Assembly: GCA_048886185.1 (NCBI GenBank)
Contig: JBHLKY010000019.1
Coordinates: 60,001 to 92,000 of the forward strand
Direction: 5' to 3'
DNA: 32,000 nucleotides
Source of the DNA: Candidatus Hermodarchaeota archaeon
GTDB taxonomy: Archaea > Asgardarchaeota > Heimdallarchaeia > Hodarchaeales > Hodarchaeaceae
Below are positions 6,778 to 28,026 of this stretch, in pieces (position 1 is the stretch's first letter; each line of letters begins with the position of its first letter). The position numbers and the translations under genes are program-made. The notes under the pieces were generated by a model that ran no database searches, had not been told where the DNA came from, and saw only the letters and a program-made list of their open reading frames with translations.

Positions 6778-6857
6778 TACTAACTCTCTTTTTTAGAGTA
6801 GAGAATATTAAATTTTGCATAAAATGTGATTGAAAATGAAAAAATTTAGTAGTTTTC

Positions 6858-7556
6858 TCAGGAAGATTTTAACAGTTTTTGGTTTTCTATTAAATATTTT
6901 GGTCCAAATCCTTCTACTTGAGATAATGGACCTTCAATTCCCTTTGGGTTTCCTGTTCTTGTGTATATTACCTTAGATTCAATAATTGCGTTTAGAATGT
7001 CAATTGGTTTCTCATTAAACGAATCAAGTAAAATTTCGGCCTTCTTTTGGCCCGTCTTATGAAGACCCTGTAAAAAATACAGCTGGTTATCCCTTAGCGA
7101 TCGCTTTTTAGGTGATTTTCGCGCAATAATAGGATCAGCGTGTTCTTCTTGAACCCATGAGGCGATACGATTTAATGCGATAGCTGTCTCGCTCATTCGA
7201 GAAGTTGGGACAACTGGTACTTGGCGACGTAAAAAAATATAAGTCAAAGCACCATAAACATGCTTTTTTCTCTTCTTCCATTCAGTTCTTTCGAATGCTG
7301 AGGGCAAATTTTCTAATAATAAGATTGGTTGGTCATAGGTTTCAATTAATCGATCAATTTGTTCAAAAAGTCGATTATCCATTATAGACGTAATTAAGTC
7401 CAAACCTGTTTTTCTTTCACAAGCTACCTGATCAGATAAGATATAGTCAGCGACATCTAATTGTTGTTCTTCAACCTCCATACCAAATGTCACCAGTCTT
7501 TTCTTGAGTTTTTCAGGTTCCCGTTGATCAACTATGATTTGTAAAGGCTGAGTCAT
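6858..7556 (-). CDS. xpf: Short XPF/Mus81-family ERCC4 nuclease with C-terminal HhH motifs (no helicase domain)
   Basis: IIVDQRE, ADY...ERKTGLD (GDxnERKx3D motif), RLFEQ, and HhH-like GLHKTGQKKAEILL and QVEGFGPK. Confidence 0.92.
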   Translation of the reverse strand: MTQPLQIIVDQREPEKLKKRLVTFGMEVEEQQLDVADYILSDQVACERKTGLDLITSIMDNRLFEQIDRLIETYDQPILLLENLPSAFERTEWKKRKKHVYGALTYIFLRRQVPVVPTSRMSETAIALNRIASWVQEEHADPIIARKSPKKRSLRDNQLYFLQGLHKTGQKKAEILLDSFNEKPIDILNAIIESKVIYTRTGNPKGIEGPLSQVEGFGPKYLIENQKLLKSS

Positions 7557-7589: not shown

Positions 7590-9974
7590 TTATAAGAGAT
7601 AGCCCTTTTCTGACAGAGTTCTAGGTAACAAATTATTCTGAATCAAGGACTCAAAAATAATTCTGATGTCATTCCTAGAAATGTTTGTTTCACGACTGAT
7701 TTCTTCCCAAGGGATTAACTTTCTTATTTGCATTTCAGGTTGCTTTACATAATCAATAACTTTACTAAGAGCCTTTTTTTGGGTCATTACTTTGTTTTTA
7801 TCCAAAGAGATTATTAAATTGCTATCCTCTGAAATTATTTCTCTAACTATCGTTTCATTTTTCTTATCTTTAATAATTTCAAGGATTTCTAAAAGCTCTT
7901 GGAGAGAAAATTCTTCCCTATATTCTATGATTCCTTGAATTTCCTGATTAATGCCTTTTGAGGTTACAAACTCTCCCACTGCATTAGTAAATCCTCTGAT
8001 AAAAAGGATATTTTCAACTATTTTATAAAGGATTTTTGGATTCAAATCTAATTTGAATCCTAGAACATTAAAATTGATTCTTCCTTGAGTTTGAATTTCT
8101 TTTTCAACTTTAGCTATCAAATCTTCAGTGAAGAAATAATCAGTGTCAGGAGTAGTTCTACCGCTAAATTCTTGTGTGATAAAATCGAGAATAACTGGTT
8201 TTGTTGTGCTAGCTATTTTTCCAAATTTTACTTTTTGTAAGAATTCAGAGATAGAAAGATAGCCTTTACCAATGATATGTTGTTGAAGCTGTGGATGAAG
8301 ATTCTCTAGAGTGATTAATTGTCCATCACTTGCTTGATAGGTTTTTATATCCATTAATTTCTGTAGGCTTTGTAAGAATCTAGGAAATTCGATATTAATA
8401 TGTTTTAAAAGATGAATTACTCTTGATTCATCAATTCCTGAGGAATTCTGTTCTAGTTTCTGAAATTCTGTTATTTCTAGAAAAACATTGATTTCTTCAA
8501 GCCATACCCCTTTAAACTTGTCTTCAACAATCTCTTTTAACGTGGAAATTTCGATTTTAGGATTTCCGATTTGAGTTATAAATTTCTTAAGCGAGACAAT
8601 CTTATTACTTTCTATCTGATGTTTTAACTGAGTCTGTAGATATTCTTTTGTAAGGTATTCATTTTGAGAATTATACCATCCATCTTTTGATGGATTTAAA
8701 ATTGGAATTAATTCTTTTTTAACTACATCATTAGATTTATTGATCTCTGTTGCAATACTTGGAATTTGAAGAATTCCTGAGCTTTTAAATTCAGTAGAGA
8801 TATTGTTAAAGCACTCTACTGTTAAATAAAGGTCTTGATTAACTTGATGACTTTGTGGAATAGTGGAGATTAATTGCTTTAATATCTCTAGTGAAACCTG
8901 TCTGAAAGGATCTTTTTGTTTTATAGTTGGAATGTGAATGGAGTTATTCTCTTCTAACTCTGTTATCAATAATCTCTTTAGACCTGTTTCTGTTAAATAA
9001 GTGTCATCAAAAAGAGGAATCAGCTTTAAGTTTAATATTTTTGTAACTAATACCTTTATAGCAACTACATTGGACTGTAATTCCGCAGCAAGTTCTGATA
9101 AGACCAACCTGTCTTTTGCTATTAACCGTGTTTGGAGATCTTTTATCGCAAAAGCCATTTGAGAAGTAAGGGAGGAGACTGATGAATCAAAGTTTTGTTT
9201 TGTTGTGTCGGTTCCATGTTGGAGTGAAGCGATTAAATCAATTCTCCCTTTTGATATGACTTCAGACGTGATTTCCTGTTCATTTTTTTTAAGAAAAGCC
9301 GCTGCTGTTTCTCTAACATAGTCATTTGGGTCTACAAGGTTTTCTATAAATGGTAATATAAGTTCCCGTCCTCCCATATGTTCCAAGGCTGACCCTGCTT
9401 GATTACGTGTCCAATCATCATACCCAGGATTTCGCATGATTTCAACAAGGGTGCCAATTGCTTTTGGTGTCTTTAACTTTCCAAGGGCATATATTATTGA
9501 TCTGCGAAGACCACCAGTTTCTGATTTTAATAATTGCAACAATTTTACTTCTACTCCCTCAATTTGGTGTGCAACAACAAGTTCCATTGCAGTCTTTCGA
9601 ACCACCTCTGCCTGATCATTAAGACTTCTCATTACTTGTGGTTTAAGCTGGGGATGATTCTGTTTAGCAAGCCATTCAAGAGCTAATGACCGAATCCCTG
9701 GACTTGGATCTGAAAGTGCTGAAGAGACTAAAGATTCAACTGTTTTTACGTCTGGAAGAGCTTCTATTAATGTTATTAGTGCTTTTTCTCTAATATTCTT
9801 CTCTGGAGCTTTAGTAAAAGGTAATAACGATTTGACGATCATACGGAAGCGAAAATCCGCGGAATTTGGGTTTGCTTGTAAATATTTTTGCAGATTGTTT
9901 ATTGAAGTCCATTTGAGATCGATATCCTTTGATTTAAGGCCTTTAAGATCATTCAATACGGATTCTTCGGACAT
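7590..9974 (-). CDS. HEAT-repeat protein with C-terminal tandem winged-helix (PCI/UFL1-like) repeats
   Basis: Start reassigned to ATG 9974 (MSEESVL; residue 40 of the track ORF). HEAT repeats: LSDPSPGIRSLALEWL, LNDQAEVVRKTAMEL, LVDPNDYVRETAAAFL. C-terminal units recur as YLT...[L/I]..E...[GRI/RLV].L.EL (e.g. FFTEDLIAKVEKEIQTQGRINF, YLTKEYLQTQLKHQIESNKIVSL). Confidence 0.75.
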   Translation of the reverse strand: MSEESVLNDLKGLKSKDIDLKWTSINNLQKYLQANPNSADFRFRMIVKSLLPFTKAPEKNIREKALITLIEALPDVKTVESLVSSALSDPSPGIRSLALEWLAKQNHPQLKPQVMRSLNDQAEVVRKTAMELVVAHQIEGVEVKLLQLLKSETGGLRRSIIYALGKLKTPKAIGTLVEIMRNPGYDDWTRNQAGSALEHMGGRELILPFIENLVDPNDYVRETAAAFLKKNEQEITSEVISKGRIDLIASLQHGTDTTKQNFDSSVSSLTSQMAFAIKDLQTRLIAKDRLVLSELAAELQSNVVAIKVLVTKILNLKLIPLFDDTYLTETGLKRLLITELEENNSIHIPTIKQKDPFRQVSLEILKQLISTIPQSHQVNQDLYLTVECFNNISTEFKSSGILQIPSIATEINKSNDVVKKELIPILNPSKDGWYNSQNEYLTKEYLQTQLKHQIESNKIVSLKKFITQIGNPKIEISTLKEIVEDKFKGVWLEEINVFLEITEFQKLEQNSSGIDESRVIHLLKHINIEFPRFLQSLQKLMDIKTYQASDGQLITLENLHPQLQQHIIGKGYLSISEFLQKVKFGKIASTTKPVILDFITQEFSGRTTPDTDYFFTEDLIAKVEKEIQTQGRINFNVLGFKLDLNPKILYKIVENILFIRGFTNAVGEFVTSKGINQEIQGIIEYREEFSLQELLEILEIIKDKKNETIVREIISEDSNLIISLDKNKVMTQKKALSKVIDYVKQPEMQIRKLIPWEEISRETNISRNDIRIIFESLIQNNLLPRTLSEKGYLL

Positions 9975-10121
9975 ACCACTCACTAAAGCATAAGTATGTG
10001 ATTCTAGTCTCTTTACTCCAAAACAACATATAAGGATATTTATTCTTAGATATATATTTCCTCCAAGAAGGATTCTTCTATATCTCGACATAATTTATTA
10101 GAGTGCTGTTTATAGGCTGCT

Positions 10122-11322: not shown

Positions 11323-11802
11323 TTAGAGTTTTTTAGTTAGAATTAGAATATTTTCATCTCGGATCCGCTTTTCTCCCGTTACTGTAAACCCAAATCTCTC
11401 ATAAAATCTGAGGAGACTCGGAATTTTAAAATATATCTCTAATTCAATTCCAGTTATTCTCGGCATATTTTTTTGGATCATCTTGATGACCTCCCTAATA
11501 GTCCAGAAACCTATTCCCTGTTTTTGATATTGTGGTTTAATCGCCAAATGAAATAGTTTTATAGTGTCCTCTTTTAGAGGAGCTAAAGAAAAAGTTCCAA
11601 TTAACTCTTTATTTTCTGAATAAACTCCATATAATTGATCCTTTCGGAAAGCATTATTGATTTTTTCAGCGGTATCGTTCAGTGCTCCAGGGGGTCGAGA
11701 TAACACATTTGATATTGATTGGTAAGCATCCTTTATGATTGATTCAATTTGCAATAGTTCTCTTTCATGAGCCAAATGGAAATAAATCATGGTTTCTCTC
11801 AC
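11323..11802 (-). CDS. GNAT family N-acetyltransferase
   Basis: Motif A LAIKPQYQKQGIG and FYERFGF. GTG start 1 nt after the upstream gene's stop. Confidence 0.9.
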   Translation of the reverse strand: MRETMIYFHLAHERELLQIESIIKDAYQSISNVLSRPPGALNDTAEKINNAFRKDQLYGVYSENKELIGTFSLAPLKEDTIKLFHLAIKPQYQKQGIGFWTIREVIKMIQKNMPRITGIELEIYFKIPSLLRFYERFGFTVTGEKRIRDENILILTKKL

Positions 11803-11803
11803 T

Positions 11804-12520
11804 CTATCCTGGAAAATTTTTGCTTTCTCGAATAAAACGAGCTGGGGTTCCAGCGTAAATTGTATTTGGAGGGATTTTTTGTCCTTTTGTTACAAGAGAA
11901 TTCACCCCAATCACACTGTTGTCTCCGATCTCTGCACCTGGAGCAATAATTGTATTTCCTCCTATTGTAACATTTCTCCCAATTTTAACTGCTGCAATTG
12001 TCAGATATTGATTTTCTGTAACATGAGCAGCAATGATTGCACGCAATCCAATGAAACAGTTATCACCAATTGTAACTAGATGCGAATCAATCATTGTACC
12101 TGATGAAAGATATACATTCTTTCCAACATTCAAACCATATAATCTAAGGAATTTTGCCAAAAACATGGAATATAGATGAGGAATAAAACTAAAAGCTTTC
12201 AACATTGATTTAAAAATCCCTGGAGAGACAATAGTGACACCATATAATTGAGCTAAATCAGAACCATGATAGTATCTTCCTGGTTGTATTTTTGGTAAAA
12301 ATAAACGACAAATTATCTGGGAATGAATGATTCCAAAAGCGATTGAGGAAATGAAGTAAAGAATGGGTAAAAACATTGCTATAATAAGCCAGAGAAGAAA
12401 ATCATTCACTGAAATCATCAATAAATATACAGATATGAACTCTGGTAGAAAAACTGCCATAAAAGTTATGGCTGTGAAGAAAAAATATCCAAATAATCGA
12501 AATTTTGTTATAAATTTCAA
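11804..12520 (-). CDS. Membrane-anchored left-handed beta-helix (hexapeptide repeat) acyltransferase, paralog 1
   Basis: Two N-terminal hydrophobic helices, then LRLYGLNVGKNV, VTIGDNCFIG, AAH (putative catalytic His), VKIGRNVTIG, EIGDNSVIG and YAGTPA. Confidence 0.88.
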   Translation of the reverse strand: MKFITKFRLFGYFFFTAITFMAVFLPEFISVYLLMISVNDFLLWLIIAMFLPILYFISSIAFGIIHSQIICRLFLPKIQPGRYYHGSDLAQLYGVTIVSPGIFKSMLKAFSFIPHLYSMFLAKFLRLYGLNVGKNVYLSSGTMIDSHLVTIGDNCFIGLRAIIAAHVTENQYLTIAAVKIGRNVTIGGNTIIAPGAEIGDNSVIGVNSLVTKGQKIPPNTIYAGTPARFIRESKNFPG

Positions 12521-12551: not shown

Positions 12552-13322
12552 TTAGTGAGGGATGATTTCTTTTACCTGTTTAACCGTTTCAGACGCTTTA
12601 ATAACAAGTTTCTCCAGTCCAGATGCGGGGTCTCCGTCAACATAAAGTAATAATCCCTCGCTAATTTTATAGGCAACTAAATTAGTCGCCTCTGAAGATA
12701 CAACTAGATATCGTAAATTCCTCATATATGTTGAAACATTTAAGAGACGAATAGCTCCCTCCATTCGTGTTTGATCCATTTTATATTCGAGTAGAATATC
12801 CCCAGTGAATGAAACAATCATGGCACCCCTTACTCCTATGTTTTTTTGTTGGACTAATTTTTTCAGATAAAAGAGAGCAGCATTTTTTGAGCTAGTTAAC
12901 ATCTCACGAGTTTCACCCAAAAAGACTTCGTCAACATGATTTTTGAATGGTTCAAATATATCTGTTTCAATAATTTGCATTTCTTCCGCCCGTGTTCCAT
13001 ATTCTGCTAAAAAAAGACTCGAAATAGTAGTTAATTTAAATTGTAAGTCTAATGGACTTACAAGAGGAGAAGCTAATATAGCGAACACTAATCCACCTCT
13101 TTCAATGAAGGAGAATCGGAGATCTGTCATATCAACAACTTTCAAATCGCTCAATGATGTTGATTTAGCGAAAGTGAACATAGCTGTCAAAAAAGCTACT
13201 ACTAGATGGGCATCTGGTGTTTTAGTATCATGAGTTTCGTAAGATCGCGTAAATAGTGTGTTTCCTGTTTCTTTTTCAAAAATGAAAAAAGCTTTTATTG
13301 TCTTGAATTTCTCTAAAGCCAT
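12552..13322 (-). CDS. Longin-domain plus roadblock-like-domain protein
   Basis: N-terminal longin pattern FFIFEKETGNTLFTRSY...LVVAFLTAMFTFAK...VVDMTDLRFSF...VFAILAS...FLAEY...FEPFKNHVDEVF. C-terminal roadblock-like GVRGAMIVSFTGDILL...LVAYKISEGLLLYV. Confidence 0.75.
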   Translation of the reverse strand: MALEKFKTIKAFFIFEKETGNTLFTRSYETHDTKTPDAHLVVAFLTAMFTFAKSTSLSDLKVVDMTDLRFSFIERGGLVFAILASPLVSPLDLQFKLTTISSLFLAEYGTRAEEMQIIETDIFEPFKNHVDEVFLGETREMLTSSKNAALFYLKKLVQQKNIGVRGAMIVSFTGDILLEYKMDQTRMEGAIRLLNVSTYMRNLRYLVVSSEATNLVAYKISEGLLLYVDGDPASGLEKLVIKASETVKQVKEIIPH

Positions 13323-13337
13323 GTTGAACTGAACTCC

Positions 13338-13907
13338 TCATTCATCTAAGATATATTTCTTAGCTGTAAGATTTAAGATTCTGGTTGTCATAGTTTGAAA
13401 AGCCTCATTTACATTTTGTCCAGTTTTAGCAGAAGTTTCAACATAATCAATGACATGCATTGCTTTTTGGATTCTTTTTGTTTGAGAACTCGTAAATGCT
13501 CGTTCTTGCTTCAAATCCGCCTTATTTCCAATAAGGATCGATAAACATTTTGGAGAAACTTTTAGAACTTGTGATTGCCACCTTTCTTGCATATTGAGAA
13601 GTGTTTCCCTACGGGTCAAGTCAAAAACATAAAACGCTCCAAGAGCTCCTTTTAAATAGAGATGTGAGTATGAAACATGCCTAGCCTGGCCAGCAATGTC
13701 CCATACTTGTAATGATACAGTCCGTTGTACATCTTTTGTATCAATAAACTTTACTGTTTTAGTAAGAAAATCAACTCCTAAACTCATGCTATATTCTTCT
13801 CGGAACTTATTCTCAATAAAGCGTAATATTAATGATGTTTTACCTACTGCCCCATCACCTAATAGTAATACCTTCAAAATATGTTTAATTTCTTTACCTT
13901 TAGCCAA
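13338..13907 (-). CDS. Rab-like small GTPase (Ras superfamily)
   Basis: G1 GDGAVGKT, switch I YSMSLGVDF, G3 WDIAGQ, G4 NKAD, G5 ETSAK. Start reassigned to TTG at 13907 (MAKGKE), preceded by SD-like GGAGATGGT; about 189 aa. Confidence 0.93.
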   Translation of the reverse strand: MAKGKEIKHILKVLLLGDGAVGKTSLILRFIENKFREEYSMSLGVDFLTKTVKFIDTKDVQRTVSLQVWDIAGQARHVSYSHLYLKGALGAFYVFDLTRRETLLNMQERWQSQVLKVSPKCLSILIGNKADLKQERAFTSSQTKRIQKAMHVIDYVETSAKTGQNVNEAFQTMTTRILNLTAKKYILDE

Positions 13908-14197
13908 ACTACCATCTCCAGCTTTAATGAGTGTCCCGAGACGATTAATGGAATTATAATAATAAAAGGAATATAGTGTGCACCATTTCAAAAGCTTTTC
14001 TTCGAATATTAAAAAGATAGTAACAGTAATAAAAAGGAATGTTCGAATGTGAATAGGAAATATGGTATTTGCTTTATTGTGAAAAGCCAAAAAAAGAATC
14101 TCTGATCCTTCTCGATATTTCAAGGAAAAAATTTGATGAGTAGTCATGCAAATTCTCATAAAGCCTCTTATCTTAGTGCATAGAAGAATTTTTTAGG

Positions 14198-14498: not shown

Positions 14499-16196
14499 TT
14501 ATAATAAAAATTCCTGCCCTTCTAAGGGGAAAAATATTTTCGAATAAGTATTAAGGATTGGAATTTTATTTATTACTTCCGATCCTAAATGAATAAGGGC
14601 CATCCTATCAGTTAATGATGCAAGTTTGGTTATCTGGTGATAATTTAAGTGCATTTCATGTGTTGTGTTTAAAAAATTACATTCAGAAATTGTCAATTGA
14701 GTTTTTTTAACAAGATGGTGTAATTCATCTGTCCACCCAGTATCACCTGAATAAGCAATAGAAAGATCTTTCATTTCTAATCTATATCCTTGAGCTTCAG
14801 GAGTATGAAGCATTTTAAAAGCTCTGATGATTAATCCATCCATCTTCAATGGAGAATTAGATGGTGTAAGAACTGAGAATTCACAATAAAAAGGGAGCTT
14901 TTCTTCTGCGATGTTTCCATATAATGCTGAGTAAAGATCATTTGTCTTTCTGTCAATCTCTGGAGGGCCAATGATCATCAGTGGCTTTTTCCTTCGTTGA
15001 AAAATGCCAGCTTCTAGTAGAAAGAACGGAATCCCACCAAAATGATCCCCATGAAAATGGGAGATAAGGATTATATCAACATTATTGGTTTCTCTGCGTG
15101 ATTTCTTTAATGCCTGTATTGTGTGGGGGCCACAATCCAATAGAATTCCTTTATCACCAATTTCTACAAAAACAGAGGCACTTTTCCCTCCCCCTGATCC
15201 AAAAGCGTCTCCAGTTCCTAAAAACACAATATTCATCTTATGAGTTCTCTTTGGTTTGATTATTGTTCCAACAGCTTCTCCATTCAAAGCAGTGCTGAAC
15301 TCTTTGAGTCCTACGACCCAACATTTGGTGTGAGATTTTGCTAATTCAATGATATTCTTCAATTTACCGGTCATTTCATTTGTAACATCAAAGTTTCCTT
15401 TAGTTTTAACATTCTGAAAGGAAAGGATTTCATCATTAATACCAAAATATGATATTTCGTCCGCGTCAACTTCAATTCGAGAAATAAATTTAGCATCAGA
15501 GAAACTTGGATCCTTCGTATATATTCCAGTCCGTTTTCCCTCCACATTAGTAAGAAATATGACTGAATCTAAACGAGTAATGTTAAGACGTCTTGTCAAA
15601 GCTGCAGGATAGATATCACCAGAGAATACTTTCCAACCGCTTGATGTAGAACCAACATCTCCATAAAAAACTGGTACTGCTGTAGTTTCAGTAATTATTT
15701 GTTCAAAAATTGTTAGATCAAAAGCATCAGCTTTTTTTGATGAAGTATTTTCTGTTGGAACACCTCTTAAAATGGGATGGGAAGGGAAAGAGATAGCATT
15801 TATACCATTTTTTATGGCTTCAGATACAATTATTTGATTCTGAATGGCAACTGCAAGTTTGATGAAAGGGTATTGAATATCGAGATCTGAATGGTTCTTT
15901 AATAAATGAATAACCAAGGAATGTCCTATTGAACCAGCCCCATGAATTAATGCTAATTTCCTTTTGGGATTTTCAGCTAAAAACGACGATAAAATCTTAA
16001 GGATTTCATTAAGATAATCAAAGTTAACTAAATCAATAATTTTCTCAGTTAATGTTCCTAATGAACCTGTACCTGATTTAAAGAAGTCTATTTGATCTAA
16101 ATATTGTTTAATGCGATAAGAATCTTTTTTATAAGTTATTAAGCTTCCACCCATTTTAACTAACGTGATTGGCGTTTTCTTCATTCTTTTCACCAA
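14499..16196 (-). CDS. Isopentenyl phosphate kinase (amino acid kinase family) fused to an MBL-fold metallo-hydrolase (RNase Z/phosphodiesterase-like)
   Basis: N-terminal part: LVKMGGSLITYK, LIHGAGSIGH (IPK His), PVFYGDV, FSGD, IYTKDP, DVTNEMTGK, GTII. C-terminal part from 15236: FLGTGDAFGSGG, LLDCG, SHFHGDH, HTPEA, YSGDT, ECN. The reading frame is continuous across the junction. Confidence 0.85.
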   Translation of the reverse strand: MVKRMKKTPITLVKMGGSLITYKKDSYRIKQYLDQIDFFKSGTGSLGTLTEKIIDLVNFDYLNEILKILSSFLAENPKRKLALIHGAGSIGHSLVIHLLKNHSDLDIQYPFIKLAVAIQNQIIVSEAIKNGINAISFPSHPILRGVPTENTSSKKADAFDLTIFEQIITETTAVPVFYGDVGSTSSGWKVFSGDIYPAALTRRLNITRLDSVIFLTNVEGKRTGIYTKDPSFSDAKFISRIEVDADEISYFGINDEILSFQNVKTKGNFDVTNEMTGKLKNIIELAKSHTKCWVVGLKEFSTALNGEAVGTIIKPKRTHKMNIVFLGTGDAFGSGGGKSASVFVEIGDKGILLDCGPHTIQALKKSRRETNNVDIILISHFHGDHFGGIPFFLLEAGIFQRRKKPLMIIGPPEIDRKTNDLYSALYGNIAEEKLPFYCEFSVLTPSNSPLKMDGLIIRAFKMLHTPEAQGYRLEMKDLSIAYSGDTGWTDELHHLVKKTQLTISECNFLNTTHEMHLNYHQITKLASLTDRMALIHLGSEVINKIPILNTYSKIFFPLEGQEFLL

Positions 16197-16466
16197 ATCT
16201 GTTTTTGATGTTGCCTAAACAGACACAAAATGGGACTCTCGATGATCATCATCTTCATTATTTCGTTTTTTTCTATTCCAACAACGAATGAAAGTCTAAT
16301 TTTTTCCAAATGACTCAACTATGTCACTTTATTGTATTATCAATTATTAAATTTTAAATTCCTGTAAATAAAGGAATACCCAAGGAATCTCTTTAGTTAT
16401 TTTATGAGAAGCATTTTTTAATTAGAGTTTTGTTGCTCTTTAAAAACTTAGTAAGGTAGAGTATTC

Positions 16467-18113
16467 ATGAAAATTACTAAGATTATCTTTATCATACTTC
16501 CTACAAGCATCGTGTGGTTAGTTACAGCTCCTTTTCTCCTAGTTTATGCTTTTGATTTGCTTGAAATAGACATAAATCAGAGTTTATCCAGTTCTGGTGT
16601 GATTCTTCTATTTTTTACTGCAATTTTCGCCACTTTTTCCTTGTATTTATCTGGATACATCATTGATAAGAATCCACAGGTAATCAACACATTAATCACA
16701 GGATCTTTGATAATGAGTGGGATTAGTCTCTTCATCACAGTTCTAGGTGTTGATTTTTTTATTTTTCTTATATTAGGATTGATAAGTCTTGGTTTTTTCT
16801 TGGGAATATTAGCATCAGGAGCTAGTGCACTATATACAGCACATTCAGAGGTCCACCACCGAGGACGTATTTATGCCAGTGCCCTATTCATCAGTGCAAT
16901 TATATCACTAATCATTATCCTATATGTTGAACTCTTTAAGCTAGATATTCGAATTCCTCTCCTTATTATTAGCAATTTGGCGATTCTTGCTGCAATCCTT
17001 TTCTATTATGTTTCTCGCTCATCATCTCCTTGGGTGAATGATAAATTCCCTACTCCAATCAAACATATTATTAATCGGAGATCAGTTAAAGCTTATTTGG
17101 TCGCTCATTTCTTCTTTTATTTTATGCTTGGAATAGCTTTTGCTACTCTATCCCAGATCGGTCATTCACGGTATCCCGATCTACTAGTTACTCTGCCATT
17201 CCTTGGAAAGCTGGCATTAGATCAGACAAAATTATTTTGGATCATTGTTTTCTTTGGTGATTTACTTTGTGTATTACCAATGGGGTGGTTTTCTGATCAT
17301 TTTGGAAGAAAGAACCTTGTTGTAATGGGTTTTTATGGAGTCGTAGTTGCAGCATTAATTGTAGGCTTAAGTGAAAATCCAATAATGTTCTACTTCTCTG
17401 CGTATCTATTAGGGGTCAGCTTTTCAGCGATCCATCCCTCTCTTGATAGTGCTGTATGGTGTGACTTAAGCCCTCTTGACTCTGTAGGACGATATAATGC
17501 CTTAGGTTTCGTTTTTTTACTACAAGGAGTCGGATGTGGTTTAGCGATGGGCATATTTATACTTCCCTTAAGTCCTAGTACTATTAGTTATGTCCTTTTT
17601 GGTTCAGCTGTTTTTGGATTATTTCCCCTCTTTTTTGTAGCAGACTCTTTTGAACCTCTTGATATCTACCTTCTCTTAATTGCTACAAGCGGAATATGCA
17701 TGTTTAATTACGATTTTGAAAGACCAGATCAAAGTAAGATTACTGAAAAAGATCTAGCTCTTGTGGCCGGCGCCTTATCAGCTATTAGTACATTTTTCGA
17801 GGGGATAAGCCAACAACCTGCTGTTTTAGATCTTGTTCGTCATGGTAAAGTGGTGACTTTCCAAACAAAAGGAGGAACAGAGAGAAAGGAGCTCATCGCC
17901 ACAATTTTTACCAACAAGATGGATCCTGAGCTACAACAAAGCCTAGATAGTTTCTTAGCAAGATTTTGTTTATCTTATCATAACGAGATAAATGAGTGGA
18001 TTGGTCAAACTAGTGTTTTTGATCCTGCAATCAGTATCGCTGAAGATGTTTTTGGTCCTCTTATTCCATCTAAAACAGTATTAAGAAGTTTAAAAGAGTC
18101 AGAGATTAACTGA
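16467..18113 (+). CDS. 12-TM MFS transporter fused to a C-terminal longin domain (copy 1)
   Basis: About 12 hydrophobic segments, MFS motif A GWFSDHFGRK and loop HHRGR. From about 17655 a soluble longin pattern: LLLIATSGICMFNYDF...LVAGALSAISTFF...LDLVRHG...IATIFTN...FLARFCLSY...W.G...F. Confidence 0.85.
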   Translation: MKITKIIFIILPTSIVWLVTAPFLLVYAFDLLEIDINQSLSSSGVILLFFTAIFATFSLYLSGYIIDKNPQVINTLITGSLIMSGISLFITVLGVDFFIFLILGLISLGFFLGILASGASALYTAHSEVHHRGRIYASALFISAIISLIIILYVELFKLDIRIPLLIISNLAILAAILFYYVSRSSSPWVNDKFPTPIKHIINRRSVKAYLVAHFFFYFMLGIAFATLSQIGHSRYPDLLVTLPFLGKLALDQTKLFWIIVFFGDLLCVLPMGWFSDHFGRKNLVVMGFYGVVVAALIVGLSENPIMFYFSAYLLGVSFSAIHPSLDSAVWCDLSPLDSVGRYNALGFVFLLQGVGCGLAMGIFILPLSPSTISYVLFGSAVFGLFPLFFVADSFEPLDIYLLLIATSGICMFNYDFERPDQSKITEKDLALVAGALSAISTFFEGISQQPAVLDLVRHGKVVTFQTKGGTERKELIATIFTNKMDPELQQSLDSFLARFCLSYHNEINEWIGQTSVFDPAISIAEDVFGPLIPSKTVLRSLKESEIN

Positions 18114-18295
18114 TTACCAATATTATTACTATGATGACTGTTACTTCAAAATAAAAAGGATGGGTAAGTAAGTTAATAAAGTTCCCCAGATCAATAAAAT
18201 ATTAACATTTTTCTACGAGAATATCAAGAAAGGAAGAAAATTACTAAATAAATATTATGATATACGTTGTAAAATAGATAACAGAATCCTATATA

Positions 18296-19972
18296 ATGTC
18301 CAATGTGATAAAAGTGAAAATCAAAATAATTTTGACCGTAATTATCCCAAGTATATTCTCTTGGTTGTTAGCTTCCCTATTACTCTTGGTTTATTCTTTT
18401 GATATTTTAGATAAAGTAGAATCGTCAAAAAACAATCCTTTTCTCGGATTTGGAATGTTGATATTGGGTTTTGTATTGTGTTTGGTTATCTTCATGCTTT
18501 ACTATACTGGCTCTGTACTCGATAGCCATCCAGAATATTTATGGCTTTCTGTGATAATAGGGATGGTGGGGAGCTCTATTTCAGTTATTATTTCAATTAT
18601 ATTTTTTGAGGAATATATAATATTGATGATTGGATTGATATGCCTTGCTTTCTTTTTCGGAATATTGTTAACAAGTAATGGAACACTGTTTGCTGGGTTA
18701 ACAGATATGTGGCACCGAGGAAGAGTATATTCATATTGTATCTTCATCTTTATTGCTATTGCCTTACTTAGTATCCTCTTTGGGGGAGTATTTTCGCATG
18801 AATATGAGAGGATTTACCAAAGTGGGATTTGGACTTATAGCTTCACAAGTGTGTTAGTTGTTGTTGGTATTCTTGGACTTATATTTGCTTTAATTTTTTT
18901 CCTTTTAACCCGTAATCTAGGTATCCCTTGGCAAAATGATAAATGGCCAACAAAATTTTCCAAAATCATTGGACGAAGGTCAGTTCGAGCTTATATACTC
19001 TCACACATTTTATTATATACGATGCTTGGTATTTCTTTAGCTAGTTTTTCTCGAATTGGAGAGTTATTGGAAATTTCTTGGGCAATAGGGGAGTATGATC
19101 TCCCTGTTGATAAAACGTTTTGGTTTTTCGTCCTACTTGGAGATCTCCTAGTGATTTTACCTGCTGGGTACCTTGCGGATCGTTTCGGACGAAAAAATTT
19201 TATTGTTGCTGCAATTTATGGATTAGTATTTGCATCATTGATTTTTGGGCTAGAAAAGTCTCCCAATAGCTTCCTCATTGCTGCTTTTGGTATAGGTTTT
19301 TCTTTTGCAATGCTCCATACAACACTAGACTCCTCTTTATGGGCTGATTTATCTCCTCGGGATGGTCTTGGCCGTTATTACTCGATTGGGTTTATTTCAC
19401 TTGCACTTGGTCTTGGAATTGGCTCTGGATTTGGTCATTGGGTTTTAACACCTATGGTTACTGATCTTTCGGGATTAGAATTCATTACATACCTTATAAC
19501 TATTTTAGCAGTTCTATCGGCTTTACCTTTGTTCTGGGTATCAGATAGTTTCAAACCACTTGATTTTACGCTCCTTCTTGTTATTGAGGAAGGAGGACTA
19601 CCAATCTTCGATTACACATTTACAAAAGATATAGATACCAGTATTGAATTAACATTACTTTCAGGAGCTCTCAAAGCCGTATCCTCTTTTATGTCCGAAA
19701 CCATGAAAGACAAAGGCGATTTGAATCTAGTAAGACATGGTAACCACTTTATATTGACTGAAAAAAAGAATGGAACATCTGCTGCTATTTTTAGTAATAA
19801 ACAGGATCCAGAATTACATAAAGCTCTTCGAGAATTTCTTGAAAAGTTCTGTATTAAGTATAATGAAACGCTTAAAACATGGCGTGGAGTTCGGTCTCTA
19901 TTTGATGGTGCTGTTGATATTGCAGAGGAAGTTTTTGGATATCTATCACCTTCAACGAACCTTGAAGAATAA
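18296..19972 (+). CDS. 12-TM MFS transporter fused to a C-terminal longin domain (copy 2, paralog)
   Basis: GYLADRFGRK and WHRGR. From about 19556: LLVIEEGGLPIFDYTF...LLSGALKAVSSFMSETM...LNLVRHGNHFIL...AAIFSNKQDPEL...FLEKFCIKY. Alternative GTG start at 18314 (VKIK aligns with MKIT of copy 1). Confidence 0.85.
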   Translation: MSNVIKVKIKIILTVIIPSIFSWLLASLLLLVYSFDILDKVESSKNNPFLGFGMLILGFVLCLVIFMLYYTGSVLDSHPEYLWLSVIIGMVGSSISVIISIIFFEEYIILMIGLICLAFFFGILLTSNGTLFAGLTDMWHRGRVYSYCIFIFIAIALLSILFGGVFSHEYERIYQSGIWTYSFTSVLVVVGILGLIFALIFFLLTRNLGIPWQNDKWPTKFSKIIGRRSVRAYILSHILLYTMLGISLASFSRIGELLEISWAIGEYDLPVDKTFWFFVLLGDLLVILPAGYLADRFGRKNFIVAAIYGLVFASLIFGLEKSPNSFLIAAFGIGFSFAMLHTTLDSSLWADLSPRDGLGRYYSIGFISLALGLGIGSGFGHWVLTPMVTDLSGLEFITYLITILAVLSALPLFWVSDSFKPLDFTLLLVIEEGGLPIFDYTFTKDIDTSIELTLLSGALKAVSSFMSETMKDKGDLNLVRHGNHFILTEKKNGTSAAIFSNKQDPELHKALREFLEKFCIKYNETLKTWRGVRSLFDGAVDIAEEVFGYLSPSTNLEE

Positions 19973-19974
19973 TA

Positions 19975-20871
19975 ATGAGTGATAACATGCTAAGTAATCT
20001 GCTTTATCGTTTGAGAGTACCGAACATTGTTGGTTCATCACTTTTTGCTTTTACTGGATTAATACTGAATCTACGTCAGCCTCACACGTTTGAAATGTAC
20101 AGAGCTCTTCTAATTGTACTTTCTATGATATTCTTCAATATCTTCATCTGGATTTCAAATGACTATTATGATGCTCCATATGATGCTGCTGATGCTTATA
20201 AGAGGGCAAGAAACGTATTTTGCGGGAAATCAGAAAGTCGAGATTATAAGATTGGAATGACTTTAATGGTTTTTTCAATACTATCGGGATTAATTAGTGG
20301 ATGGTTTGCTGGTCTTATCTATTTTTTATTTGCTGTCGCAGGAATGCTTCTTGCATATTTTTATAACAGTCCAATTTTTCGTGCAAAGAGTCGGATTGGT
20401 TTTGATTGGATTTTTCATGTAATCTGGTTTCAAATCACATTTCTTCCCCTATATTTGTATATTTTTGGTTTTGATGTAATTTGGGGTCTTGAGACAAAAC
20501 ATATTCAATTTTATTGTGTTTTTCTTTCAATTTCTTTACTGTCATTGTTAGCGCAAATAAATCATCAGATTCCCGACTATTCTCTAGATCTTCATACAGA
20601 ACAAAGAACAACCGTTGTTGCTTTAGGGATAGAAATTACGTTAAAGCTTAGATACATATTTTATTTTTCTATCTCTATTGCTGTTTTTATTCTTTGTATA
20701 CTAAACAATACATTCATTGCTTTGTTAATGATGATTATCTATACTCTATACATGTTAAAGACTGATAAAACGAAAGCAGCAGATGCTCCTTTACCATGGT
20801 TGTACTTTTTTGTACTAGATTACCTAATTCTCTCTCCAATATTATCCAATATTTTTTCAATATTATTATAA
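19975..20871 (+). CDS. UbiA-superfamily intramembrane prenyltransferase
   Basis: First Asp-rich motif NDYYDAPYD, then YNSPIFRAK, and second motif NHQIPDYSLD...RTTVVALG. Multiple TM helices. Starts 2 nt after MFS-longin copy 2. Confidence 0.88.
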   Translation: MSDNMLSNLLYRLRVPNIVGSSLFAFTGLILNLRQPHTFEMYRALLIVLSMIFFNIFIWISNDYYDAPYDAADAYKRARNVFCGKSESRDYKIGMTLMVFSILSGLISGWFAGLIYFLFAVAGMLLAYFYNSPIFRAKSRIGFDWIFHVIWFQITFLPLYLYIFGFDVIWGLETKHIQFYCVFLSISLLSLLAQINHQIPDYSLDLHTEQRTTVVALGIEITLKLRYIFYFSISIAVFILCILNNTFIALLMMIIYTLYMLKTDKTKAADAPLPWLYFFVLDYLILSPILSNIFSILL

Positions 20872-20893
20872 ATCTATTATAGGTGTTTGACAA

Positions 20894-21559
20894 GTGGTCC
20901 TGTTCCTTATTATTCAGCTTTTGTTAACATTAAGCCTTATTATCCTTTTTCTACTTGTTTTTACTGGAGTTACTTCATTTGAGGTTGATTTAATCCCTTC
21001 ATTGGTTATATCCCTCTTTCTAACCTATTTTTTGACGCTTTTTCTTCTAGCTAGTATGCACAAGATTTCAAGAGTTTTAATGAAAAATAAGGAAGGTGAG
21101 ATAGATGGTACGGATTTAATCTTATGGACAATTCAAGCCACAAGCTTGGACATTGCTATAACATTAACTCGAAAGTTAATTATTCATTCTCCTTTTCCAG
21201 ATGTCCTTTTTAGATTATTTGGTCTAAAAATTAAGAAGGGGGTTTCAATATTAACTCCTCGTATCTGGGATCCCGATCTTATTGAAATCGGGGAGAACAC
21301 TTTAGTGGGTACAAACACCCTAATATCAGGACATCATATAAGGAGGGGTAAAATGTTCCGAAGACGAATTATTATTGGGAAAAATGTCACAATCGGAGCT
21401 GATTGTGTCATTTTACCAGGTGTAGTAATTGGAGACAATACTATAGTTGGTCTTGGCTCTAGTATTCCACCTAACCAAATACTGGATGCCAACAGTCTAT
21501 ATAGTGGTGTTCCAGTGAAAAAGCTGAAATCTTTGACCATTAAAGATTCAGAGAATTGA
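20894..21559 (+). CDS. Membrane-anchored LbH acyltransferase, paralog 2
   Basis: Two TM helices, FRLFGLKIKKGV, IEIGENTLVG, SGHH, IIIGKNVTIG, VIGDNTIVG and YSGVPV. Confidence 0.88.
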   Translation: MVLFLIIQLLLTLSLIILFLLVFTGVTSFEVDLIPSLVISLFLTYFLTLFLLASMHKISRVLMKNKEGEIDGTDLILWTIQATSLDIAITLTRKLIIHSPFPDVLFRLFGLKIKKGVSILTPRIWDPDLIEIGENTLVGTNTLISGHHIRRGKMFRRRIIIGKNVTIGADCVILPGVVIGDNTIVGLGSSIPPNQILDANSLYSGVPVKKLKSLTIKDSEN

Positions 21560-21617
21560 TTCCATTATTTATTATAATTATAGATTTTTGACACAATGAA
21601 ATTTCCGTTTCTGATTT

Positions 21618-22292
21618 TTAAAGTTCTTTGGGATCAATTTCTTTAACTTTTTTAACTGGCACACCAGAATAAATGCAATTTGAATCAAGCTTCCAATTTG
21701 CAGGTACAAGAGATCCTGCACTTACCATTACATTATCTCCAATTTCTGCTCCTGGTAAAACAGTGGAGAGAATGCCGAGGGTGCAATTTTTTCCAATTTT
21801 AATACGCTTTCGATAGAGTCTTCCCCTCCGTATATGATGAGCAGTTATCATCGCATTTGTTCCTATTAATGTCCCCTCTCCCACATCAATAAGCTCTAAG
21901 TCCCATAAATCTGCCATAATACTCACCCCTTTTCTTTTCTTAAAACCAAATAATCTCATGAGTATATCTGGAAATAGTGGTAATAAGATTATTTTCTTTG
22001 TAATTATCCGGGCTAAATCCCAGGTAGTTTCCTTGATTGTCCATAAAATTTTCTCTAATCCAGCCAATTCTCCCTCTTTATCGCGAAGTAATACCCTAGA
22101 AGTTTTGTTAATTGAAGCTAAGCCAAACAATATTGTGAAATATGATATTAGGAATGTTAGTATAATCACTATGAGAATTTCTATAATGGAAGGGAAAAAA
22201 AATAAATCTTGAGAGAGAACTCCAAGAAATACAAAATAAACAATCGTGATACAGAGACATATTAGGATTAATTGAATAATTAGATAAATCAT
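21618..22292 (-). CDS. Membrane-anchored LbH acyltransferase, paralog 3
   Basis: Colinear with paralog 2 (KEGE, ILWTI, RLFG, HHIRRG, IGKN, YSGVPVKK). ATG at 22292, with an alternative GTG at 22295. Confidence 0.88.
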   Translation of the reverse strand: MIYLIIQLILICLCITIVYFVFLGVLSQDLFFFPSIIEILIVIILTFLISYFTILFGLASINKTSRVLLRDKEGELAGLEKILWTIKETTWDLARIITKKIILLPLFPDILMRLFGFKKRKGVSIMADLWDLELIDVGEGTLIGTNAMITAHHIRRGRLYRKRIKIGKNCTLGILSTVLPGAEIGDNVMVSAGSLVPANWKLDSNCIYSGVPVKKVKEIDPKEL

Positions 22293-22317
22293 CACATTAA
22301 CACTTTGTTTGAATCCT

Positions 22318-23472
22318 TTATTTCGAGCTTAATGCTTTTATTGTCTCTAGACATAACTGAATTTCTTCTATCGTATTATAACAGTGAGGAGAGAGGCGTA
22401 TTCCTCCCTCACGATAAGAAACAGCAATGGGAAAAGATAATTTTCGGAGTTGGGATACAATTTTCTCACCATTAGGACAGGAAAAGCTAACTATTCCACT
22501 TCTTTGTTCTTTAGTCTCTATTGGAGTGTTTAACTGAAAAATCTTCTCGTTTCTAACAATTTCAATAATTAAATCGGTTAGCTTCATGATTTGCTGATAT
22601 ATTTTGTCAATACCTAGATCATTCAGATATTTTACAGCTCTTGCTATTAAATGGGTATGTGGGCCTAGTGAAGCCTGAAATCTTTTGGCTCCACGGCCAG
22701 GTATATAAACATGATGGGATAGATCAAGTGGATTTGCATCTGACATTGACCCAACAAAACTAGGATAAAGTAATTCAGCTAATTCCCGCTTGATATAAAT
22801 AAAACCAGTCCCAAGAGGTCCCAATAGCCATTTATAACCTCCAGAAGCCAGATAATCAATATCTTGCTTTTGAACATCTACTGGTACTGCTCCAAGAGAT
22901 TGAATTGCATCTACAATGAATCTTACTTCTTTCTCATGACAAATTTTAGCTAGCTCGTTAATGTTAGCACGAAATCCATTACTAAATTGAACATGTGAAA
23001 TTGCGACTAATCGTGTTGATTCATCAATAGCTTGGTTGAATGATTCTAGAGGAATAACCCCGTCAATATTTGAGAGAACTTCTAATTGCAAGTCGAATTT
23101 ATTTGCTAGAGCTTGATATGTGTAGGAATTTGATGTGTATTCCGCATTATTAATAATGATTTTATCATCTTTCTCCCATTTAATGCTTTCAGCAATCGCA
23201 GCCAGTCCATAACTCGTGTTATAGGTAAAAGCGATCTCTTCCTCAGGAAATTTAGCATTTATAAACTTACCAACAATTCGACGATCCTCATTTATACTCT
23301 CGAGTATCTTTTCGAGATTTGGAAAAAATAAATCGCCATAAGATTTATGATGAATCAACCATTTTTGACATTCTTCAATTACTGGTGTAGGACTCGGTGA
23401 GATGGCAGCATGATTTAGAAAGATGGCTTTTTCAGTAACTGGGAACTCTTTCCTGAGCTTTTCAAAATCCAT
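22318..23472 (-). CDS. Aminotransferase class V / C-S lyase-like PLP-dependent enzyme
   Basis: IFLNHAAISP, NTSYG, SHVQFSNG, VDAIQSLG, PLP lysine in SGGYKWLLGP, and IRLSPHCYN. Confidence 0.9.
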   Translation of the reverse strand: MDFEKLRKEFPVTEKAIFLNHAAISPSPTPVIEECQKWLIHHKSYGDLFFPNLEKILESINEDRRIVGKFINAKFPEEEIAFTYNTSYGLAAIAESIKWEKDDKIIINNAEYTSNSYTYQALANKFDLQLEVLSNIDGVIPLESFNQAIDESTRLVAISHVQFSNGFRANINELAKICHEKEVRFIVDAIQSLGAVPVDVQKQDIDYLASGGYKWLLGPLGTGFIYIKRELAELLYPSFVGSMSDANPLDLSHHVYIPGRGAKRFQASLGPHTHLIARAVKYLNDLGIDKIYQQIMKLTDLIIEIVRNEKIFQLNTPIETKEQRSGIVSFSCPNGEKIVSQLRKLSFPIAVSYREGGIRLSPHCYNTIEEIQLCLETIKALSSK

Positions 23473-23651
23473 CAACTTTTATCATCCTTAATTACTATTT
23501 TATAATGCTTTCATATTTTCTAGTAAAAATACATATTTATTACATAGGATGACTTGTTTTCCAGGAAACCATCCTGAAATAGTTTATCACAGATTTAATA
23601 ATCTCAAATAAACACTACAATACTCTTGTTTTGCAGCTATTCTTTGTTAAA

Positions 23652-27108: not shown

Positions 27109-28026
27109 TCAAGTCATTATTTTTTGAATTATTCGACATGCTGAGCATTTAATTTCTGGGGAATAAGATGAACATAAACTACATCTGTGTACTAGCTCAA
27201 CTTGAGCTTTTCTTTTGGTTTCGTTTTTTATAGATGAAATAATGTTATAAAGAATACGTGGATCTTTTTCCCCAATTATAGATAGGAATGAGGTAATTTC
27301 CGATCGGAATGATCTTTCTGCAAAAATACATCGGACATTCAAAAATTGTAAATGGTTAATTTTTGAATATTTACTAATTGTGTTTTCAGAAACTTTTGAT
27401 AAGGGTTTAATTCTCAATGGTAATGATTTTCCATCAGCTGAAGTGTACTTAATTTTGTCACGATAAATTTTCCATGGATTGCCTCGAAGTATATTAAGGA
27501 GTATTGTTTCAGCCTCATCTTCGAGAGTATTTCCCAGTGCAATATAATCAGCTTTATTATCTAAAGCTAATCTCATAATACCATGACGACGTAATACGCC
27601 ACAAATAGTACATGGAGTATATCTTAATCCTTGTTTATCTGATTGATGAATCAAAGAAGGGAGAGAGTAATCAAATAATTCAGAATAAGATTTCTGAATA
27701 AAAGATACAGTAGAGTAACTCGATTTAAGCTGGTTTATGACCCTTTTCCGAGGCTGTTGAATTTCTGGGGTCTCTTCTTCGAGGATGATGGCAATTAACT
27801 TAGTAATTCGGAGCTTTCGCTTATATTTATGGAGAATATGAAGCATTGTAGTACTGTCTTTGCCCCCCGATAATGCAACACTAATAGAATGTCCTCGGAT
27901 ATATCTTGGAATATTATTTAGAATCCTTTTTTCAAACTTCCGAGAGTAACAATTAGGACAGAAGTATTGTGTGGAGGGAGGGAATTTTAATTGACCAAAT
28001 AAACCACAATCACACCAAGGACTCAT
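27109..28026 (-). CDS. PP-loop tRNA thiolase of the TtuA/Ncs6(CTU1)/TtcA family
   Basis: PP-loop VALSGGKDS, central PCTICGVLRR, RIKPL and a downstream Cys (VRCIFA). Terminal Zn-finger-like Cys sets (CDC...CPNC; CSLC...CSAC) favour TtuA/Ncs6 over TtcA. Confidence 0.88.
   Translation of the reverse strand: MSPWCDCGLFGQLKFPPSTQYFCPNCYSRKFEKRILNNIPRYIRGHSISVALSGGKDSTTMLHILHKYKRKLRITKLIAIILEEETPEIQQPRKRVINQLKSSYSTVSFIQKSYSELFDYSLPSLIHQSDKQGLRYTPCTICGVLRRHGIMRLALDNKADYIALGNTLEDEAETILLNILRGNPWKIYRDKIKYTSADGKSLPLRIKPLSKVSENTISKYSKINHLQFLNVRCIFAERSFRSEITSFLSIIGEKDPRILYNIISSIKNETKRKAQVELVHRCSLCSSYSPEIKCSACRIIQKIMT

Follow-up and report, generated by a model that had tools for sequence, protein, structure and literature searches.

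The 32,000-nucleotide (nt) stretch of DNA analysed here, the window, spans G000:C19:60001-92000 in the 4.8-Mb, 96% complete genome of a Hodarchaeales archaeon (G, C and L mark genomes, contigs and loci), and contains a major facilitator superfamily (MFS) carrier with a longin tail, MFS2-longin, whose gene is followed closely on the same strand by those of a divergent UbiA prenyltransferase and of a transmembrane (TM) left-handed β-helix (LbH) acetyltransferase, TM-LbH2 (Table 1). Public homologues of the window's proteins carry the labels Hodarchaeales or Heimdallarchaeota. The core of this locus is tentatively read as a unit similar to lacY-lacA, centred on MFS2-longin, in which transport is coupled to modification; the arrangement suggests that transport of a small molecule goes along with its modification at the membrane. 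All the parts belong to known families, of which they are lineage-specific variants, and the most notable of them is the MFS-longin architecture. A first-pass annotation of the same DNA, made from the letters and their open reading frames, had read the locus as a possible single pathway leading to an acetylated prenyl-ether lipid or another prenylated small molecule. Its gene positions and its 2-nt and 22-nt gaps are exact when set against the map of open reading frames, its domain identities are all borne out by Pfam and NCBIfam, the tight plus-strand unit of MFS2, UbiA and LbH2 is real, and the divergent pair (MFS1 and a fusion of isopentenyl phosphate kinase, IPK, with a metallo-β-lactamase, MBL) and the convergent pair (LbH2 and LbH3) lie as it described them. 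The single pathway survives in part, in that a prenylated small molecule handled by a transporter fits the data, whereas an obligate pairing of UbiA with TM-LbH and the links to ether lipids, to YvoF and to IPK do not.

MFS1 and MFS2 both exceed the MFS_1 profile cut-off of 33.4 bits, which places them in the superfamily, and a crude hydropathy scan gives 10-11 peaks (11 in MFS1) and a long K/R-rich central loop, the tails being K/R-rich as well. In both proteins the soluble longin domain is C-terminal (MFS1, amino acids (aa) ~409-548, nt ~17649-18074; MFS2, aa 419-558, nt 19550-19969); the first-pass annotation had recognised the longin correctly and placed it wrongly at the N-terminus. Sequence comparison gives only weak hints of this fold, viz. 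a Pfam Sybindin match in 6/20 members (best E 0.009) and 9-14% identity to solved longins. A first AlphaFold 2 (AF2) model of the MFS2 tail, built on 20 orthologues, reached a pLDDT of 54.6 and no fold match above Z 3.8, and was superseded by one built on 33 sequences, for which 20 distant copies of the domain were added from other Heimdallarchaeia genomes (pLDDT 84.4, pTM 0.81, element order beta-beta-alpha-beta-beta-beta-alpha). VIA-align superposes this second model on the VAMP7 longin (4afi_B) with Z 13.5 and an rmsd of 2.7 over 120 residues, on Bet5 (3cue_C), Sec22 and CPLANE with Z 13.2, and on a Lokiarchaeota longin (8yqg) with Z 11.2; Roadblock folds score only ~9, the top 30 rows are all longin-type proteins, and the best Foldseek matches are TRAPP, AP sigma, Ykt6 and Mon1-Ccz1. 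The tail as modelled is therefore a genuine longin fold.

The tail is not peculiar to these carriers, as the domain family is present in 82 of the 83 genomes of the class. It also ends a 12-TM protein of 873 aa elsewhere in the window's genome (L143, on G000:C8) and proteins of 6-7 TM segments and 376-496 aa in other Heimdallarchaeia families (L140, L141, L144, L145), and because the same tail recurs on other TM proteins across Heimdallarchaeia, membrane-attached longin tails are a class-wide architecture. A literature search found no description of an MFS-longin fusion. In two genomes, G016 and G001, three genes are inserted between MFS1 and MFS2, encoding MsrB, a class-I SAM methyltransferase with a weak UbiE/COQ5 match and a zinc-ribbon protein.

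The UbiA protein matches PF01040 over aa 24-260 above the cut-off of 34.2 bits and so belongs to the superfamily, ranking 12th of the 16 UbiA matches in the genome as the most divergent paralogue that still passes the Pfam cut-off. Its two Asp-rich motifs, N62-D63-xx-D66-xxx-D70 and N196-xxxx-D201-xxx-D205, are invariant among 15 orthologues, and four of these residues (D66, D70, D201, D205) hold without exception in 40 distant relatives as well; since both catalytic motifs are kept, as a UbiA assignment demands, the protein is probably an active enzyme. Close homologues (at least 54% identity) number only 26 among 5.8 billion clusters, and a profile search of 1.84 billion representatives returned 362 hits at E<=1e-3, with one representative of the family followed by a steep drop in score to 150 bits. 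Searches of the PDB with the single sequence and with the profile gave no match to a solved UbiA at E<=10, and none of the NCBIfam subfamilies came near its cut-off; the Atlas model superposes on UbiA clusters with TM-scores of 0.75-0.78. In a maximum-likelihood tree the window UbiA groups with uncharacterised archaeal and metagenomic relatives, and a 99/95 split parts it from the heme O synthase, MenA, DGGGPS-like and DPPR-like paralogues of its own genome, so that it is, judged by sequence, a divergent orphan clade.

The check proposed in the first-pass annotation, a phylogeny of UbiA against known clades, thus excludes DGGGP synthase, MenA and heme O synthase, all of which are encoded elsewhere in the genome across that split. 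As a DGGGP synthase (NF009521/NF009522/NF009523) the protein scores 20.8 against 269 bits, and the DGGGPS-like paralogues L003-L008 form a 99/95 clade of their own on the opposite side of the tree. As MenA, its best subfamily match, it scores 29.3 against 289 bits, and the MenA-type gene of the genome, which passes TIGR00751 (104 against 102 bits), is not its sister. TIGR01473, the heme O synthase (CyoE/CtaB) model, gives no match at E<=0.01, and C1 carries two genes for this enzyme. The commonest matches of the distant relatives are to the generic models PRK12875, PRK13595 and PRK13105, weakly and far below the cut-offs; among the control genomes only those of D. radiodurans, C. glutamicum and H. 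volcanii match all three, and these organisms make unusual carotenoids. Because of these matches and of what is known of the three organisms, an affinity with lycopene elongases may be entertained, as a lead only. The genome encodes an SQS/PSY-family and a PcrB/GGGPS-family enzyme, both elsewhere; a literature search found no description of the three PRK models, and nothing related was found in the neighbourhood of a PRK12875-like UbiA paralogue on C15.

LbH2 and LbH3 consist of an N-terminal two-helix TM hairpin followed by an LbH domain, which lies on the K/R-rich, presumably cytoplasmic side; LbH1, encoded further upstream in the window, also has two TM peaks. LbH3 is ~50% and LbH1 ~31% identical to LbH2. 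The only model that LbH2 and LbH3 match over their full length is one module of TIGR02353, the Pls/PosA terminal domain (E 1.3e-16 and 9e-14), and as the terminal domain of a nonribosomal peptide synthetase (NRPS) they fall short, having a single module in place of three in tandem and 60 and 51 bits against a cut-off of 423; no NRPS domains were found in the window. The closest solved structure to LbH2 is LacA (1kqa, E 1.5e-11), with His147 aligned to LacA His115, and the equivalent catalytic His is present in LbH1 and LbH3. With Hexapep scores of 39-46 bits and this His, the three proteins have the features of LacA/Maa/WcaF-type enzymes without reaching any equivalog cut-off, and the kept His of LacA-type O-acetyltransferases upholds the earlier call of acetyltransferases. 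By these residues, both UbiA and LbH look active. The analogy drawn earlier with YvoF, the acetyltransferase of Bacillus ether lipids, has fared less well: LbH2 and LbH3 score 55.7 and 54.1 against 300 bits for NF058585, along model positions 59-159 only (E 4e-15). The YvoF, WcaF and LacA models all match the LbH repeats alone, and LacA and the Pls/PosA module score as well as YvoF or better, so that the resemblance is generic.

Considering the distribution of these genes, the comparison covers 22 genomes of one GTDB genus, i.e. the window genome and 21 others, and the neighbourhood recurs with all of its carriers inside that genus, which answers the earlier suggestion that its conservation be checked. 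MFS2-longin is the constant gene, and what stands downstream of it takes one of three states. UbiA alone follows it in G001 and G016, where the LbH query found no full-length TM-LbH; TM-LbH alone, in one or two copies starting ~20-90 nt after the end of the longin, follows it in G002, G004, G005, G006, G011, G018, G019, G020 and G021; and both follow it, as MFS2-UbiA-LbH or MFS2-LbH-UbiA, in the clade of the window. UbiA is directly 3' of MFS2 in eight genomes (G000, G001, G010, G012, G014, G015, G016 and G017) and one gene further, behind LbH, in G003 and G008; the contig of G009 ends at that point. Because each enzyme occurs after MFS2 without the other, neither needs the other, and the reading of the two as an obligate sequential pair falls with the two UbiA-only and nine TM-LbH-only genomes. 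In a tree of MFS1 and MFS2 rooted by their paralogy, G001 and G016 branch first, then the genomes with LbH only, then the clade of the window. Identity between clades is 54-56% for UbiA and 57% for MFS2, and because the divergence of UbiA tracks that of MFS2, an old MFS2-UbiA pairing with vertical descent and later losses is tentatively favoured over repeated insertion.

The TM-LbH family itself is present in all 23 genomes searched in the window's order, weakly and by LbH repeats only in G001, G007 and G016, and a search of other Heimdall families returned no member of it. Other Asgard families commonly have weaker homologues that match over the full length. At four of 13 TM-LbH loci in those families a secondary carrier lies within 1.5 kb, an MFS protein on the same strand at L097 (G173) and EamA/DMT carriers at L099, L101 and L102, all from one family; no UbiA was found within 1.5 kb of the 13 loci outside Hodarchaeales. 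A TM-LbH stands beside a MenA-type UbiA at one locus of 30, on contig G023:C486 of family f2, and not at the 29 others: here, with gaps of 55-70 nt, the gene of a HAD phosphatase is followed by that of a TM-LbH (35% identity to LbH2) and this in turn by the gene of a 554-aa fusion of a PNPOx-like domain with a MenA-type UbiA. The PNPOx-MenA fusion is widespread in Heimdallarchaeia.

Seven distant UbiA relatives from outside the genus were examined for their neighbours, and three have an acetyltransferase within 3 kb, one of these with a transporter as well. This last, from Promethearchaeota, sits between an EamA/NIPA-like carrier and a GNAT; the second has two GNATs within 2.7 kb and the third a Hexapep gene at 2.6 kb. 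These neighbourhoods fit the broader alternative of the first-pass annotation, i.e. another prenylated small molecule that the MFS proteins export or sense. One distant relative is divergent from a polyprenyl synthase, and a TldD/PmbA protease pair lies just upstream of two relatives, from Theionarchaea and Promethearchaeota.

In the coupled unit proposed here, MFS2-longin would be a secondary carrier of the 12-TM type with a cytoplasmic longin tail, and MFS1 its tandem paralogue. MFS2 would share a transcript with one or two transferases that are embedded in the membrane, their active sites turned to the cytoplasm. UbiA may prenylate a small polar or aromatic acceptor at the expense of a prenyl diphosphate, and the hairpin-anchored, LacA-like LbH proteins, presumably trimers as other LbH enzymes are, may O- or N-acylate a small molecule with acetyl- or acyl-CoA. 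On the model of lacY-lacA, the transporter would supply the acceptor, or else carry off the modified product or flip it; UbiA and TM-LbH would be alternative or additive accessories of the transporter and not consecutive obligatory steps, and the longin tail would serve as a docking or regulatory module. Any physical coupling of carrier and enzymes is conjectural. The IPK-MBL fusion, the desulfurase, and the TPR and PP-loop genes would be separate units kept nearby by collinearity throughout the genus.

Beside this core stands the IPK-MBL fusion, with an IPK-like half of the AA-kinase fold (aa ~1-315) and an MBL half of the RNase Z/PhnP/Apyc1 kind (aa ~320-565), separated from the divergent MFS1 gene by a 270-nt spacer. 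The best PDB matches of its halves are an IPK (8u0k, E 2.6e-9) and RNase Z (1y44, E 1.9e-11). As an IPK equivalog (NF040647) the fusion scores 84.3 bits (81.2 in the genome scan) against a cut-off of 120, and a canonical IPK encoded on C9 scores 159.9. The two are 24% identical overall and share the motifs K-x-GGS, HGAGSIGH, SGD and a C-terminal GK; K14, G16, G17, G86, G88, G91, H92, S192-G193-D194 and G277-K278 are invariant among the fusion orthologues and the canonical IPK, and the kinase domain of the fusion carries two insertions relative to the latter. The MBL half has an HxHxDH motif, read in translation, and with 58 bits for Lactamase_B and 57 for Lactamase_B_2 it belongs to that fold; its scores against the RNase Z, PhnP and Apyc1 equivalog models are all far below the cut-offs. 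The fusion could cleave a phosphodiester and then phosphorylate the resulting phosphomonoester, usually together with an M42 or M28 partner.

The first-pass annotation had made this protein a member of the cluster. It occurs in 20/21 other genomes of the genus, with or without UbiA, and only stand-alone MBL proteins were found outside the genus; in G015 it lies 686 kb from MFS2-UbiA. In most genomes of the genus the fusion adjoins the gene of a dinuclear-zinc aminopeptidase: an M42 peptidase gene stands directly upstream of the fusion and co-directional with it in G001, G004, G011 and G018 (with an 8-nt overlap in G004), and an M28 gene stands beside it in G003 and G008 (upstream, co-directional) and in G012 (divergent), while the window genome has no aminopeptidase gene at that position. 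The displacement of M42 by M28 suggests that aminopeptidase and IPK-MBL are a functional pair, and the fusion, not being tied to UbiA, is a neighbour and probably a separate functional unit. A literature search found no description of an IPK-MBL fusion, and without assays its annotation as a part of isoprenoid synthesis is unwarranted.

The case for coupled transport and modification has to be set against several observations. Co-transcription is read solely from gaps of 2-22 nt, and the sequencing runs found for the stretch are of sediment and estuary DNA. The substrates proposed for both transferases are putative. A third MFS-longin paralogue in the genome, on C7, has no transferase neighbour, and nothing related was found around it. 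LbH3 may belong in a desulfurase transcript instead, as it lies 22 nt downstream of the co-directional class-V gene and its orthologues adjoin that gene in G010, G015 and G017. The parallels outside the genus are suggestive and few, and the three transporter-adjacent LbH loci, out of four, that come from one family may represent one event. Throughout the genus, from which all of the close evidence comes, the entire 30 kb with the CoA operon at one end and the PP-loop gene at the other are collinear; because of this the recurrence is owed in large part to descent and speaks only weakly for selection on the arrangement, and the adjacency may have been inherited without selection. There may then be no functional unit at all, the order being kept by close kinship and the short gaps reflecting compact archaeal packing, which we regard as unlikely though a serious contender. 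It would account for the inclusion of an unrelated CoA operon, ERCC4, a HEAT protein and the M42 peptidase in the collinearity, for the independent coming and going of UbiA and LbH, for the unaccompanied third carrier and for the single occurrence of TM-LbH beside a MenA-type UbiA. It sits less well with transferases that stay immediately 3' of MFS2 and on its strand despite gains, losses and one swap of order (G003, G008), and with analogous transporter/UbiA/acetyltransferase neighbourhoods built from non-homologous parts in other lineages of the phylum.

The region could also be an island for the uptake, processing and sensing of nutrients, an improbable explanation in our view, in which the MFS-longin carriers import an organic substrate that M42 or M28 peptidases, the MBL and the IPK-like kinase process. 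The details of such an island are just as doubtful: the LbH proteins would act in the manner of LacA on non-metabolisable analogues, and the longin tails would report to Ras- or Rag-like GTPases. In its favour, IPK-MBL diverges from MFS1 in most genomes of the genus and runs in the same direction as an MH-clan peptidase gene, the tails are confirmed longins, no solved LbH structure is closer than LacA, and a Ras-family GTPase and its 256-aa partner are encoded 340 nt past IPK-MBL. No clue to a substrate was found, however, a catabolic route offers no evident role for a prenyltransferase, the contact of longin with GTPase is putative, the window genome lacks the peptidase gene at that position and G015 keeps IPK-MBL far from the carriers. 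Very improbable is the integrated pathway of the first-pass annotation, in which IPK leads to a prenyl diphosphate and UbiA to a prenyl ether lipid that LbH O-acetylates in the manner of YvoF, with the MFS-longin proteins as exporters or sensors of the product. The signature His and Lys of IPK are kept, the UbiA motifs are intact, YvoF gives its partial match, the family-f2 contig sets a phosphatase, a TM-LbH and a MenA-type UbiA in a row, and acetyltransferases lie near three of the seven distant relatives. Yet IPK-MBL, UbiA and LbH vary independently, the canonical IPK (160 bits), GGGPS and the DGGGPS-like genes are encoded elsewhere, this UbiA falls outside the DGGGPS-like clade, the YvoF match reaches 56 of 300 bits and is confined to generic LbH repeats, and IPK-MBL goes with peptidase genes. 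A dedicated ether-lipid pathway is thus unsupported by the data, and for lipid biology the result is mainly a negative one, with no pointer to a modified ether-lipid pathway.

A more speculative proposal, to which we give little credence, is that the MFS-longin carriers are transceptors whose tail reports the state of the carrier to nearby Ras- or Rag-like GTPases and longin/roadblock proteins. That such a carrier would handle a prenylated or acetylated metabolite, making it an archaeal counterpart of SLC38A9-Ragulator-Rag, has an equally slender chance. If it were true, membrane small-molecule chemistry would have been tied to GTPase signalling before eukaryotes arose. A Rag-like GTPase is encoded near 31.4 kb in the window. 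The pair formed by the Ras-family GTPase gene and its 256-aa partner lies 340 nt from the IPK-MBL gene; the 256-aa protein, encoded 15 nt after the GTPase, has no Pfam match and is the most conserved gene product of the region (71-89% identity throughout the genus).

The remaining genes of the window lie outside the proposed unit (Table 1). The CoA precursor operon is complete and of archaeal type, with CoaBC, ketopantoate reductase, a pantoate-kinase-like GHMP kinase, phosphopantothenate synthetase and PanB, and its collinearity with the remainder of the window holds throughout the genus. The LbH1 gene is followed, after a 1-nt gap, by that of a GNAT acetyltransferase; the pair is also found in G012 and on G023:C780 (family f2), and LbH1 orthologues occur in G012 and the family f2 genomes. 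The class-V enzyme resembles the cysteine desulfurases of archaea, matches such a desulfurase in the PDB (5b7s) with 136 bits and is probably tied to the PP-loop ATPase, not to the transferases.

Table 1. Coordinates of the features of the window and of the other loci mentioned in the text (L044, L045 and L046 assigned to genomes by coordinates).
Feature	Locus	Position	Strand	Remarks
CoA precursor operon	Window	1792-6448	+	
TM-LbH1 and GNAT acetyltransferase	Window	11323-12520	-	
TM-LbH1	Window	11804-12520	-	Hexapep 46 bits; outside 14499-22292
Ras-family GTPase with N-terminal extension (13338-14159) and 256-aa protein (12552-13322)	Window	12552-14159	-	
IPK-like/MBL fusion	Window	14499-16196	-	Pfam AA_kinase 69 bits, Lactamase_B 58 bits
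MFS1-longin	Window	16467-18113	+	MFS_1 50.4 bits; tail aligns with MFS2 tail
MFS2-longin, MFS1 paralogue	Window	18296-19972	+	MFS_1 59.8 bits
UbiA, divergent prenyltransferase	Window	19975-20871	+	PF01040 50.2 bits; 2-nt gap after MFS2
TM-LbH2	Window	20894-21559	+	Hexapep 39 bits; 22-nt gap after UbiA
TM-LbH3	Window	21618-22295	-	Hexapep 41 bits; tail to tail with LbH2
Class-V pyridoxal phosphate (PLP) enzyme, cysteine-desulfurase-like	Window	22318-23475	-	Aminotran_5 167 bits
PP-loop ATPase	Window	27109-28026		PP-loop family match
MenA-type UbiA	C1	114405-115301		
12-TM protein with longin tail	L143 (G000:C8)	1256-3874	-	
Three genes between MFS1 and MFS2	L042 (G016)	1990-4617		
Three genes between MFS1 and MFS2	L043 (G001)	4861-7484		
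HAD phosphatase, TM-LbH, PNPOx-MenA fusion	L075 (G023:C486)	1-3174	+	
TldD/PmbA pair	L049 (Theionarchaea)	2950-5712		
TldD/PmbA pair	L147 (Promethearchaeota)	511-3342		
M28 peptidase	L039	3746-4963		
M28 peptidase	L040	14907-16124		
M28 peptidase	L041	6125-7327		
M42 peptidase	L044 (G011)	8908-9957		
M42 peptidase	L045 (G004)	8908-10008		
M42 peptidase	L046 (G018)	8937-9971		

Few known archaea are as closely related to eukaryotes as the Hodarchaeales, and this locus joins a regulatory fold of eukaryotic type, the longin, with an ordinary prokaryotic transporter. That transporter forms a compact unit with two membrane transferases that are lineage-specific and of putative substrate, and if carrier and enzymes do cooperate, they would represent a new form of transport-coupled modification and would offer a way into the function of the very large Asgard family of membrane-attached longin tails.

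Among known systems, the longin platforms (VAMP7/Sec22/Ykt6, TRAPP Bet5/Trs23, Mon1-Ccz1, CPLANE and the Asgard Roadblock-Longin proteins) have their fold in common with the MFS tails, and differ in that the domain is here fused to the C-terminus of an MFS carrier. The window UbiA has the Asp-rich motifs of its superfamily (MenA, UbiA/COQ2, DGGGPS, heme O synthase, chlorophyll synthase, lycopene elongase) and differs in matching no solved UbiA structure at E<=10 and in grouping with uncharacterised proteins. The IPK-MBL fusion shares the Lys, Gly-rich and His motifs of archaeal IPK in its N-terminal half and the HxHxDH motif of RNase Z/PhnP/Apyc1 proteins in its C-terminal half; unlike either, it unites both in one genus-restricted polypeptide. 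In the C-terminal domain of Pls/PosA, modules of a TM hairpin and an LbH-like fold stand in tandem and are condensation catalysts, and one such module aligns with the whole of LbH2 and the whole of LbH3, three paralogues being encoded in the window; the two proteins differ in being stand-alone proteins of 220-240 aa with no adenylation or thiolation domain nearby. In the PcrB/YvoF route of B. subtilis, heptaprenylglyceryl phosphate is made, dephosphorylated and O-acetylated, and an LbH enzyme is likewise found near a prenyl-transfer enzyme; the match to its NF058585 model is partial here, 56 and 54 bits over the C-terminal LbH repeats, the prenyltransferase has the UbiA and not the PcrB/GGGPS fold, the PcrB-family gene of the genome lies elsewhere, and UbiA and LbH are each found without the other. 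In the lac operon of E. coli an MFS gene is directly followed by that of an LbH acetyltransferase, as MFS2 is by LbH here, and among solved structures that acetyltransferase, LacA, comes closest to LbH2, its catalytic His being in register. The differences are the two-helix anchor of the LbH proteins (which score 47 against 347 bits for the NCBIfam LacA model), the longin tail of the MFS protein, and a UbiA that may sit between the two genes or replace LbH. By analogy, then, the locus resembles lacY-lacA more than it does the PcrB/YvoF ether-lipid route.

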